From assembly GCA_026025075.1 (NCBI GenBank), contig JAPEUI010000005.1:248001-311090 (forward strand): a stretch of DNA of 63,090 nt. Direction: 5' to 3'. The position numbers and the translations under genes were made by a program. The stretch is from Vezdaea acicularis (lineage: Eukaryota). Every line of letters begins with the position of its first letter. Position 1 is the stretch's first letter. The notes beneath the pieces were generated by a model that was not told the origin of the DNA, ran no database searches, and saw only the letters and a list, made by a program, of their open reading frames with translations. This document shows, piece after piece, positions 1,425 to 2,437 of this stretch.

Positions 1425-1518
1425 CTGATCGTTTCCCCGACCTCCTACGCTGTAGCGGTCGGAAGAGTGTTGACGCATCACTATACACCATCCACGCCTC
1501 GGATTACTTCATTGTGAT
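1425..1518 (+). ncRNA. Candidate structured cis-regulatory RNA element, copy 1 of 3, upstream of veA
   Basis: Core GAGTGTTGACGCATCACTATACACC at 1465-1489. Stems CCGACC/GGTCGG, ATCC/GGAT, and ATTAC/GTGAT around loop TTCATT. Homologous to copies 2 and 3. The repeat is seen directly; RNA function is inferred. Confidence 0.6.
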
Positions 1519-1572
1519 CGCGCTGTGCATCTGCCTTTAATCGATCTATCGATCTTCCCGAAAAGATATCCC

Positions 1573-1587
1573 ATGGTATCATCGTAA
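1573..1587 (+). promoter_or_regulatory. Putative 4-codon uORF (MVSS*) in the veA leader
   Basis: ATG GTA TCA TCG TAA. It is the only + strand ATG I find in 232-2515 outside the predicted leader intron. Confidence 0.45.
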
Positions 1588-1630
1588 AACGAACGACCCG
1601 CCGACACCCTCTATCTGGAAACCAGACTTG

Positions 1631-2099
1631 GTGAGTTGATGCAATTTTCCCTTGTGTGCGTGGCTTGGCCGTGTGTCTCGCTGGGAGACGAAGCGACCGA
1701 ACGACCGACGTGCTGGATCCACCCAGCGTTGTGGCACTCGAACGATCCCGCTGCACCGTCGAATTTCGCTCTGGCCGCAATTTCTCCACGAACTCGACCG
1801 CCGGGACCATTCGTCGCCAACAGGATTCGCCGCCGGTAATCTCTGCGACGGTGCTCGATCCGGCACTCGCACTCAGGATTCGCTTGGGATTCGGGCGCGA
1901 CCGGCGACTTCGGTCCTTTCCATCCCCATTCTCCCCCCGTCGTCGTTGTCGTGCACTCGCCTCCATCGTCTTCGTTCGGGACGCGTGGTGAAACTGAGTC
2001 GGTCATCCAGCACCGGGAACCTCTCTGTGGCAGTGGAATATCCGGCCTCATCGATCGATCACTGCGAAATGCATCGCAGCTAACAGCCTCCTTGAATAG
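1631..2099 (+). other. Putative 5'-UTR intron of veA
   Basis: GTGAGT donor at 1631, GCTAAC branch point at 2079-2084, TAG at 2097-2099. Alternative acceptors are possible at 2220/2223, 2363 and 2371. Confidence 0.55.
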
Positions 2100-2190
2100 A
2101 CTCCTTGGCTTCTAGTCTTCTGCGACTGAAGCTTCACAAATCCCTCGAGGATTAGACGCATCCCTTTTGCACCGCACCAGTCCATCCCAA

Positions 2191-2280
2191 CTGATCGTTT
2201 CCCCAATCCTCTCGCTGTAGCAGGTTGGAAGAGTGTTGACGCCTCACTATACACCGTCCTTAGGATTGCTTCGTTGCAAT
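2191..2280 (+). ncRNA. Candidate structured cis-regulatory RNA element, copy 2 of 3
   Basis: Core GAGTGTTGACGCCTCACTATACACC at 2231-2255. Stems CCAA(T)CCT/AGGTTGG, GTCC/GGAT, and ATTGC/GCAAT around loop TTCGTT. Confidence 0.6.
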
Positions 2281-2340
2281 TCCTAAGTAAAACCCCCCTA
2301 ACGCGCGACTGTCCATTCGCGAACCGCGAGCCTCCATTGG

Positions 2341-2437
2341 CTTACCGTTTTCCTAATCCCTAGATCTCTAGCGGGTTAGAGGAGTGTTGACGACTCACTA
2401 TACACCGTCCGCCCCCCGAATCGCTTCATTGTCGATT
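2341..2437 (+). ncRNA. Candidate structured cis-regulatory RNA element, copy 3 of 3
   Basis: Core GAGTGTTGACGACTCACTATACACC at 2382-2406. Stems CTAATCC/GGGTTAG and ATCGC/G(T)CGAT around loop TTCATT. Ends about 80 nt before the veA ATG. Confidence 0.6.

Follow-up and report, generated by a model that had tools for sequence, protein, structure and literature searches.

A triplicated, putatively structured RNA element overlapping 3' splice-site-like sequences in the veA leader of Vezdaea acicularis

The leader of the veA gene in Vezdaea acicularis contains three copies, each of about 95 nt, of an element in which a conserved fold overlaps a 3' splice-site-like signature in every copy, as a preliminary description of this DNA had proposed. 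The two hairpins of the element, P2 and P3, go beyond what is expected by chance. Judged from three paralogs in one genome, with base pairs that were partly hand-picked, the element is very probably a genuine, selected, and uncatalogued RNA structure. Our tentative reading, which we hold to be possible and somewhat short of probable, is that the copies are structure-gated splice modules whose invariant core would bind a factor or a partner strand.

The veA leader and the three copies

The window (the whole stretch of DNA that was analysed, 63,090 nt) lies within an 18.9-Mb fungal assembly. In filamentous fungi, VeA coordinates secondary metabolism with development, and it exerts negative feedback on its own transcript. 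The named proteins closest to the VeA encoded here come from Thelocarpon, Trichoglossum, Glutinoglossum, Piccolia, and Chaenotheca (77-79% over residues 60-260), a group that we take to be a small-genome lineage. The coding region (Table 1) contains a 60-nt intron (2643-2702) at the same position as in the orthologs. In several lichen-fungus orthologs the donor of this intron is off consensus (GTACCA, GTACAA, GTATCA, GTCCGT, or GTGGGT; loci L017, L040, L043, L061, L071, and L078), and the intron is absent from several Pleosporales-like genomic contigs. The leader is strongly depleted of ATG, with three in positions 900-2515 (1573, 1639, and 2069) against 16.9 expected; CAT occurs 27 times. The ATG-poor span measures 1.6 kb here and about 0.9 kb in most other veA leaders. 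Upstream of veA in the Alternaria-like loci L032, L041, L053, L068, and L084 there is a block of 150-260 nt that is 76-80% conserved and sits about 740-950 nt upstream of the match.

Table 1. Positions of features in the veA leader and coding region (numbered from the first letter of the window)
Feature	Position	Strand	Basis or remark
5' splice donor 1, GTGAGT	1106..1111	+	ranks 2nd among 82 GT sites for U1 pairing
Possible acceptor, pyrimidine tract and CAG	1333..1349	+	86% pyrimidine; no YTRAY branch consensus
5' arm of 12-bp stem around copy 1	1383..1394	+	pairs 1543-1554, p~1.0 in local fold
Copy 1	1425..1519	+	branch-like pentamer 1425-1429; P2 1437-1462; TAG 1453-1455 in 3' arm; AAG 1463-1465; core 1465-1475 and 1478-1489; P3 1502-1519 (alignment, fold)
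Tail of unit 1, paralogous to tail behind copy 3	1523..1565	+	TTAAT 1537; AAG acceptor ending 1565; fits DYTRAY pattern
4-codon uORF between the two donors	1573..1587	+	ATG placed as the veA start in unit 3
5' splice donor 2, GTGAGT	1631..1636	+	ranks 1st among 82 GT sites for U1 pairing
uORF inside predicted intron, 66 aa	1639..1839	+	present only on retention
uORF inside predicted intron, 4 aa	2069..2083	+	present only on retention
Strongest canonical acceptor for donor 1631	2080..2099	+	CTAAC, TAG at 16 nt
Segment able to open copy-2 P2 by pairing its 5' arm	2147..2157	+	p~0.8 in local fold; -11.9 kcal/mol
Copy 2	2191..2281	+	branch-like pentamer 2191-2195; P2 2203-2228; TAGCAG 2218-2223; AAG 2229-2231; core 2231-2241 and 2244-2255; P3 2264-2281 (alignment)
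Unit 2 tail, paralog of 2473-2519	2282..2340	+	local alignment p=0.004
Copy 3	2341..2437	+	CTTAC 2341-2345; P2 2353-2379; TAGs at 2363, 2371, 2379 all paired; core 2382-2392 and 2395-2406; P3 2419-2437 (alignment, fold)
Terminal acceptor	2485..2510	+	CTAAT; CAG 5 nt before start codon
veA coding region	2516..4396	+	Pfam Velvet E=1e-45; VeA relatives; intron position common with orthologs

All copies share one order: a branch-like pentamer, a spacer, hairpin P2 with its TAG, an invariant core, and hairpin P3. The spacer from the branch A to the P2 stem is 8 nt in each of the three, and the core consists of 11 + 12 invariant bases (23 nt) with 2 variable bases between them. The motifs first reported, namely CTGAT at 1425, CTGAT at 2191, CTTAC at 2341, and TAGs ending at 1455, 2220, and 2371, are all present at branch-A to AG distances of 27, 26, and 27 nt, and the tandem TAGCAG of copy 2 and the CTAAT..CTAG of copy 3 (2353-2363) are likewise as described. 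The TAG at 2371 is not, however, the first YAG after CTTAC, which ends at 2363 (19 nt). The tract and the AG had been said to be enclosed in the hairpin; this is true of the TAG and most of the tract, but the hairpin includes neither the branch motif nor the tract's first 7 nt.

RNAalifold run on a MAFFT alignment gave 20 pairs, 3 of them with two-sided changes; the six outer P2 pairs are all kept in the three copies, and 2 of these changed on both sides. In a structural alignment made by hand, with hand-chosen pairs, 47/47 cells over 16 pairs are kept and 6 pairs have two-sided changes, which include one double transversion. Random placement of the same substitutions left no broken pair at p=0.04, 0.0016, and 0.005 in three pairwise comparisons, which share the hand-chosen pairs and are not independent of each other. 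The folded molecule is the sense RNA, because four G-U cells become mismatches on the other strand. Core columns are identical between copies at 27-28 of 31 positions, compared with 40-48 of 65-67 elsewhere, and the clustering of invariant columns has p~0.004-0.005. An invariant core and covarying stems in an mRNA leader are found in riboswitches as well, the comparison here being drawn from three paralogs only. Folding z-scores of the single copies are ordinary (-0.95 to +1.62, + strand).

A stem of at least 6 bp that follows the branch motif and holds the AG is the predicted P2 in all three copies. The TAGs of copies 1 and 3 are predicted to be paired (unpaired probability 0.00-0.01). Context opens the hairpin of copy 2, and its AG is mostly open in the predicted fold (A2219 unpaired 0.71-0.78). 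Around copy 1, segment 1383-1394 has an alternative partner in the paralogous tail behind copy 3 (2467-2478; -16.8 vs -12.9 kcal/mol). It can pair with either paralogous tail (12 bp, or 11/12), an arrangement that resembles docking or a selector. The invariant core also contains a strict branch-type hexamer, GTTGAC (1469-1474, 2235-2240, and 2386-2391), with an acceptor within range for copy 2 only (2263).

Among 5432 genome windows of 95 nt, 2.8% contain a branch pentamer CT[AGT]A[CT] followed at 20-30 nt by a YAG as its first AG; with a distance of 9-30 nt the share is 10%. Therefore, the signature alone is modest evidence on account of the 2.8% rate, and its presence in three copies counts about once, because the copies are paralogs.

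Searches returned no other copy and no known family. A DNA search of the genome gave 3 matches, which are the three copies; fuzzy patterns across the genome stayed at control level and revealed no fourth copy (highly diverged copies are possible), and a covariance model run on 43 near-match genome loci found none either. The further genome copies that mark a dispersed mobile element were thus not found. Rfam had no match at E<=1 in positions 1-6000 of the window, so no catalogued family covers the copies. A tRNA search found none, inspection of the alignment gave no conserved box arrangement of C/D or H/ACA snoRNAs (nor was there an Rfam match), and SSU/LSU rRNA had no match in this assembly. 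Comparison by eye with HDV, pistol, and hairpin ribozymes and with Ire1 loops suggested likenesses that were then dropped. The exact core pattern has 0 matches in viral and prokaryote collections, where VeA is likewise not found.

The branch motif and AG were expected to be conserved in homologous elements, an expectation that found no support: profile, fuzzy-pattern, and covariance-model searches of 80 of 397 veA loci (metagenomes, 55 clusters), which are distant relatives only and include many transcript-like sequences with short leaders, gave no credible homolog. The best match among these 80 has E=0.43 and lies on the wrong strand, far upstream. Other veA leaders contain no excess of 9-mers from the element (64 vs 66 in the control). 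One Pleosporales-like leader, L081, matches the hairpin-skipped 23-mer at 19/23, where 0/400,000 control positions reach 18, and L021, a related transcript-like contig, has a junction at the corresponding AAG. This match may be chance, because it occurs in one of 55 leader clusters, is missing from other Pleosporales-like leaders, and was noticed post hoc. We take the pair to mean that such a context can be spliced; homology to the element is not proven.

Splice sites, upstream reading frames, and duplication

Donors were ranked by their pairing to the U1 of this genome among 82 GT sites in 950-2515. Of the two GTGAGT donors first reported, the one at 1631 stands; the other, given as 1107, starts at 1106, hence its junction would be 1105/1456. 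U1 snRNA has two genome matches (L157 and L158) with an identical 5' end. Both leader donors lie on the 3' arm of predicted local hairpins (1087-1116 and 1594-1638). A cassette exon for each copy, with its own donor at CTGTSCAT, was considered and rejected, since the two such sites ranked 52 and 79 of 82 by U1 pairing.

Acceptors were compared with the U2-type 3' splice-site pattern DYTRAY-N(4,24)-HAG, as given in PMC5587772. The strict matches end at 1565, 2099, 2220, 2263, and 2510, and 1455, 2371, and 2379 miss the first base of the pattern. By copy, the DYTRAY fit is full in copy 2 and fails at position 1 in copy 1 and at position 4 in copy 3 (CTTAC). Reading downstream from donor 1106, the first C-T-R-A-Y that occurs is the branch motif of copy 1. 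In other veA leaders an acceptor lies just ahead of the ATG. Two leader introns are usual in veA, being present in 7 Pleosporales-like loci among 24 listed, and because the second of these ends just before the ATG, 2510 is a likely acceptor here. The preliminary description contained neither 2510 nor 1565, nor the longer duplicated unit described below.

That description also treated the TAGs as working acceptors, which the spacing speaks against. They lie 26-27 nt from the branch A; of the 21 orthologous coding introns of veA, 20 have a distance of 9-16 nt (median 11; one intron family only). In copies 1 and 3 the TAGs are also buried in stems. If P2 is skipped, the distance from the branch A becomes 11 nt to the AAG ending at 1465 or 2231 in copies 1 and 2; copy 3 is without this AAG, and skipping its P2 leads to a GAG at 10 or 13 nt. 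A genome-wide estimate of branch-to-AG distance gave donors that are not enriched over shuffles.

Splicing could change the number of uORFs, through the choice of donor and not, as had been proposed, through the choice of acceptor. The uORF count is independent of acceptor choice because no ATG occurs in 1107-1572 or 2100-2515. All 16 listed combinations of 1106 joined to 1349, 1455, or 1565 (or retained) with 1631 joined to 2099, 2220, 2371, or 2510 have the 4-codon uORF and no other. Its removal takes the joining of 1106 to 2099 or a later acceptor, with donor 1631 skipped (9/9 such forms), and no other form lacks it. Two additional uORFs appear only on intron retention.

The similarity between copies extends beyond P3. 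Positions 1523-1557 and 2451-2485 are identical at 27 of 35 (p=0.0035), and an 8-mer is common to the sequences behind P3 (p=0.0012). In the alignment of the unit-2 tail (Table 1), CTAAC 2298 corresponds to CTAAT 2485, GAG 2329 to CAG 2510, and TTG 2337 to the start codon. The end of unit 1 is similarly formed by AAG 1565 and the uORF ATG at 1573. We infer that this ATG is the positional paralog of the veA start, with the qualification that a local alignment of the uORF and the start of the coding sequence is by itself not significant (p=0.70). Similarity back to the donors is not significant (p=0.13-0.80), nor is that of the upstream flanks (p=0.2-0.7), and a duplication reaching back to the donors was dropped on the former values. 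The copies look like duplicates of the last leader module, up to acceptor 2510 and the start codon, and from these alignments we infer that the module (element, terminal acceptor, and start codon) was duplicated twice.

Weighing the possible roles of the element

A role through splicing in some form, taken across our preferred reading and the two splicing alternatives discussed directly after it, is fairly probable. According to the preferred reading, the element would be a cis-regulatory RNA module of the veA pre-mRNA, present three times and restricted to its lineage, which arose by duplication of the leader end (element, terminal acceptor, and start codon) and was kept by selection. P2 would act like the stems of yeast that, according to PMC12350175, lie past the branch point and ahead of the 3' site, shorten their distance, and hide cryptic AGs. 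Folded P2 would hide the TAG and, in copies 1 and 2, bring the AAG that comes right after the stem to a distance of 11 nt from the branch A; the core covers, then follows, this AAG. Because folded P2 would hide the TAG, the copies would be weak gated acceptors, not ready TAG acceptors, each competing with the canonical sites 1565, 2099, and 2510. A weaker part of the proposal is that control may enter through the core, as the target of a protein or metabolite or by pairing with one common partner strand. The output that could change VeA protein is the use or bypass of donor 1631, by which uORF 1573 is kept or removed, together with the amount of structured leader retained (2099 vs 2510). It speaks for this reading that the P2-skipped distance equals the median of the 21 orthologous veA introns. 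Against it, the branch motif is off consensus in copies 1 and 3, the AAG is missing from copy 3, the conserved 5' letters may serve pairing with the core (as in the minimum-energy fold of copy 1), and the global fold places the donors in local hairpins and the copy-2 core at the start-codon region.

In the switch originally proposed, melting of P2 exposes the TAG, and the choice among 1455, 2099, 2220, and 2371 alters the number of elements and uORFs. The TAG is indeed invariant in all three copies, being kept in copy 2 despite deletion of the partner A, its spacing of 22-23 nt falls within the permissive N(4,24) (PMC5587772), and segment 2147-2157 could open P2 of copy 2. None of these acceptors, however, changes the uORF number; the spacing far exceeds that of 20 of the 21 orthologous introns, TAG 2363 comes first in copy 3, and 2099 is a better acceptor upstream of copies 2 and 3. 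We regard this switch as unlikely. An improbable alternative of similar standing moves control to the donor: an unbound core would mask 1631, so that 1106 is joined to 2099 or 2510 and the uORF is removed (ON), and a ligand or protein would fold the core and free 1631, so that the uORF is kept (OFF), the 3' signature being secondary. Such a layout, with two donors, a donor-dependent uORF, and structure before the terminal acceptor, is that of fungal NMT1 (PMC3597705). When about 150 leader sites are compared, the core centre has a donor as its best partner in 3/3 copies: 10 contiguous bp can form between the copy-3 core (2391-2400) and 1629-1638, and 9 bp between the cores of copies 1 and 2 and 1106-1115. 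Among controls, a donor was the partner for 1/114 leader 15-mers and for 3, 3, and 2 of 60 shuffles (8/180). The pairing window was nevertheless picked after looking, each copy offering about 6 independent windows, for which the control rate is 1-5%; in the whole-leader fold both donors lie in local hairpins, unpaired with the core, no TPP aptamer was found, and a ligand is only hypothetical.

Control of translation from the exon is rather unlikely. Here introns 1106 to 1349 and 1631 to 2099 would leave the three copies in the mRNA, the 5' half of the core would pair behind the AUG or recruit a protein, and the branch motif and AG would be relics of duplication. The 5' half of the core pairs with 2518-2534 behind the AUG at rank 1-2 of about 155 sites in copies 1 and 2, which 0/114 control 15-mers do, and the whole-leader fold pairs the copy-2 core (2231-2243) with this segment at p 0.95-0.99. 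One common target would account for invariance without covariation. Copy 3, in contrast, prefers a local partner (2444-2452), acceptor 1349 has no consensus branch motif, and the reading is post hoc; the ATG depletion that might favour it is also seen in intron-bearing leaders of other fungi. In the duplex scans the donor partners and the start-codon partners rank first but compete with each other. Because several windows were scanned against several landmarks, every one of the core pairings, with donors or behind the AUG, counts as an event of roughly 5-25%, and we regard none as established. A further idea, that the core is a U2 decoy, was discarded: its 7-bp fit is at chance level, being equally good in 59/420 windows.

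Neutral segmental duplicates, with hairpins inherited and the core homogenised by gene conversion, would fit the homology that runs beyond the element into the tails, its restriction to one genome, and the lack of a homolog among the 80 of 397 veA loci; six two-sided pair changes with no broken pair, one of them a double transversion, and a sharply bounded invariant core make it quite improbable. An intron-hosted ncRNA, such as a snoRNA-like guide, or a self-cleaving ribozyme of a new class would be consistent with an invariant core among variable stems, as is typical of such RNAs, and all three copies would be intronic if 1631 to 2510 and 1106 to 1565 are the main introns. The negative Rfam, tRNA, and snoRNA-box results given above make it very improbable.

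Comparison with known systems

A literature search found no account of RNA-structure control in a veA leader, and veA or velvet has 0 occurrences in the main text of two fungal ncRNA surveys. By analogy, the element is likened to a downstream stem, perhaps to an NMT1 switch. The downstream stems of S. cerevisiae also stand between branch point and 3' site and hide a cryptic YAG (PMC12350175). The veA element differs in being triplicated, in lying in a 5' leader, in having a 23-nt core and a second hairpin, and in that its branch use is putative. The hexA motif is a fungal hairpin with a 3'-splice-site-like right shoulder, found in 5' UTRs and introns (PMC5640933, Li and Breaker 2017); its function is putative, and it differs in its coding-like tail, mixed orientation, and gene, the veA element matching none of the Rfam models.

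A TPP riboswitch (RF00059) was rejected for the copies, as the aptamer model is unmatched at E<=1 in 1-6000 and the downstream gene, veA, is not thiamin-linked. The only match to the TPP model in the genome is on another contig. A TPP-like match at L159:1501-1595 (G000:C24:17228-17322) scores 39.7 bits, below the cut-off; the 11 nt at its 3' end (1582-1592) are exactly complementary to 1201-1211, which lies some 380 nt upstream, as in the long-distance NCU01977 type. It was right to say of fungal TPP switches that they act on splice sites, but the masked site is the 5' one; masking of a 3' site is described for Chlamydomonas (PMC3597705). The TPP switches of NMT1/THI4 and NCU01977 share with the veA leader two donors, a donor-governed uORF, structure ahead of the terminal acceptor, and possible pairing to a donor (same source). 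The veA element differs in having no TPP aptamer, in its three copies, and in a gene unrelated to thiamin. The SDC motif and the autoregulatory leader or intron structures of RPL12, RPS13, and lysyl-tRNA synthetase are also structured RNAs of fungal leaders that have splice sites and uORFs nearby or are proposed to bind the product of their own gene (PMC5640933 and PMC8216456). They are mostly single-copy and widely conserved, whereas the veA element is triple and undetected in 80 of 397 loci.

There is a slim chance that the copies form a new tandem switch sensing a ligand or VeA itself, which would be either a second class of riboswitch in eukaryotes or an RNA autoregulator that acts directly. 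Its core would alternate between folding on itself and pairing with the GTGAGT donors or the start codon, thereby setting the retention of uORF 1573. According to PMC8216456, TPP is the sole riboswitch class described in eukaryotes, which gives weight to the possibility of a new class even if it is small. The set of three paralogs, in which the stems covary and the core is invariant, is a compact, testable candidate, and through the splice-acceptor-like site in the first hairpin RNA folding may steer the splicing or translation of veA, a fungal master regulator. The likelier outcome is that a structure-gated acceptor, multiplied by duplication, would be a fresh case of a known principle.
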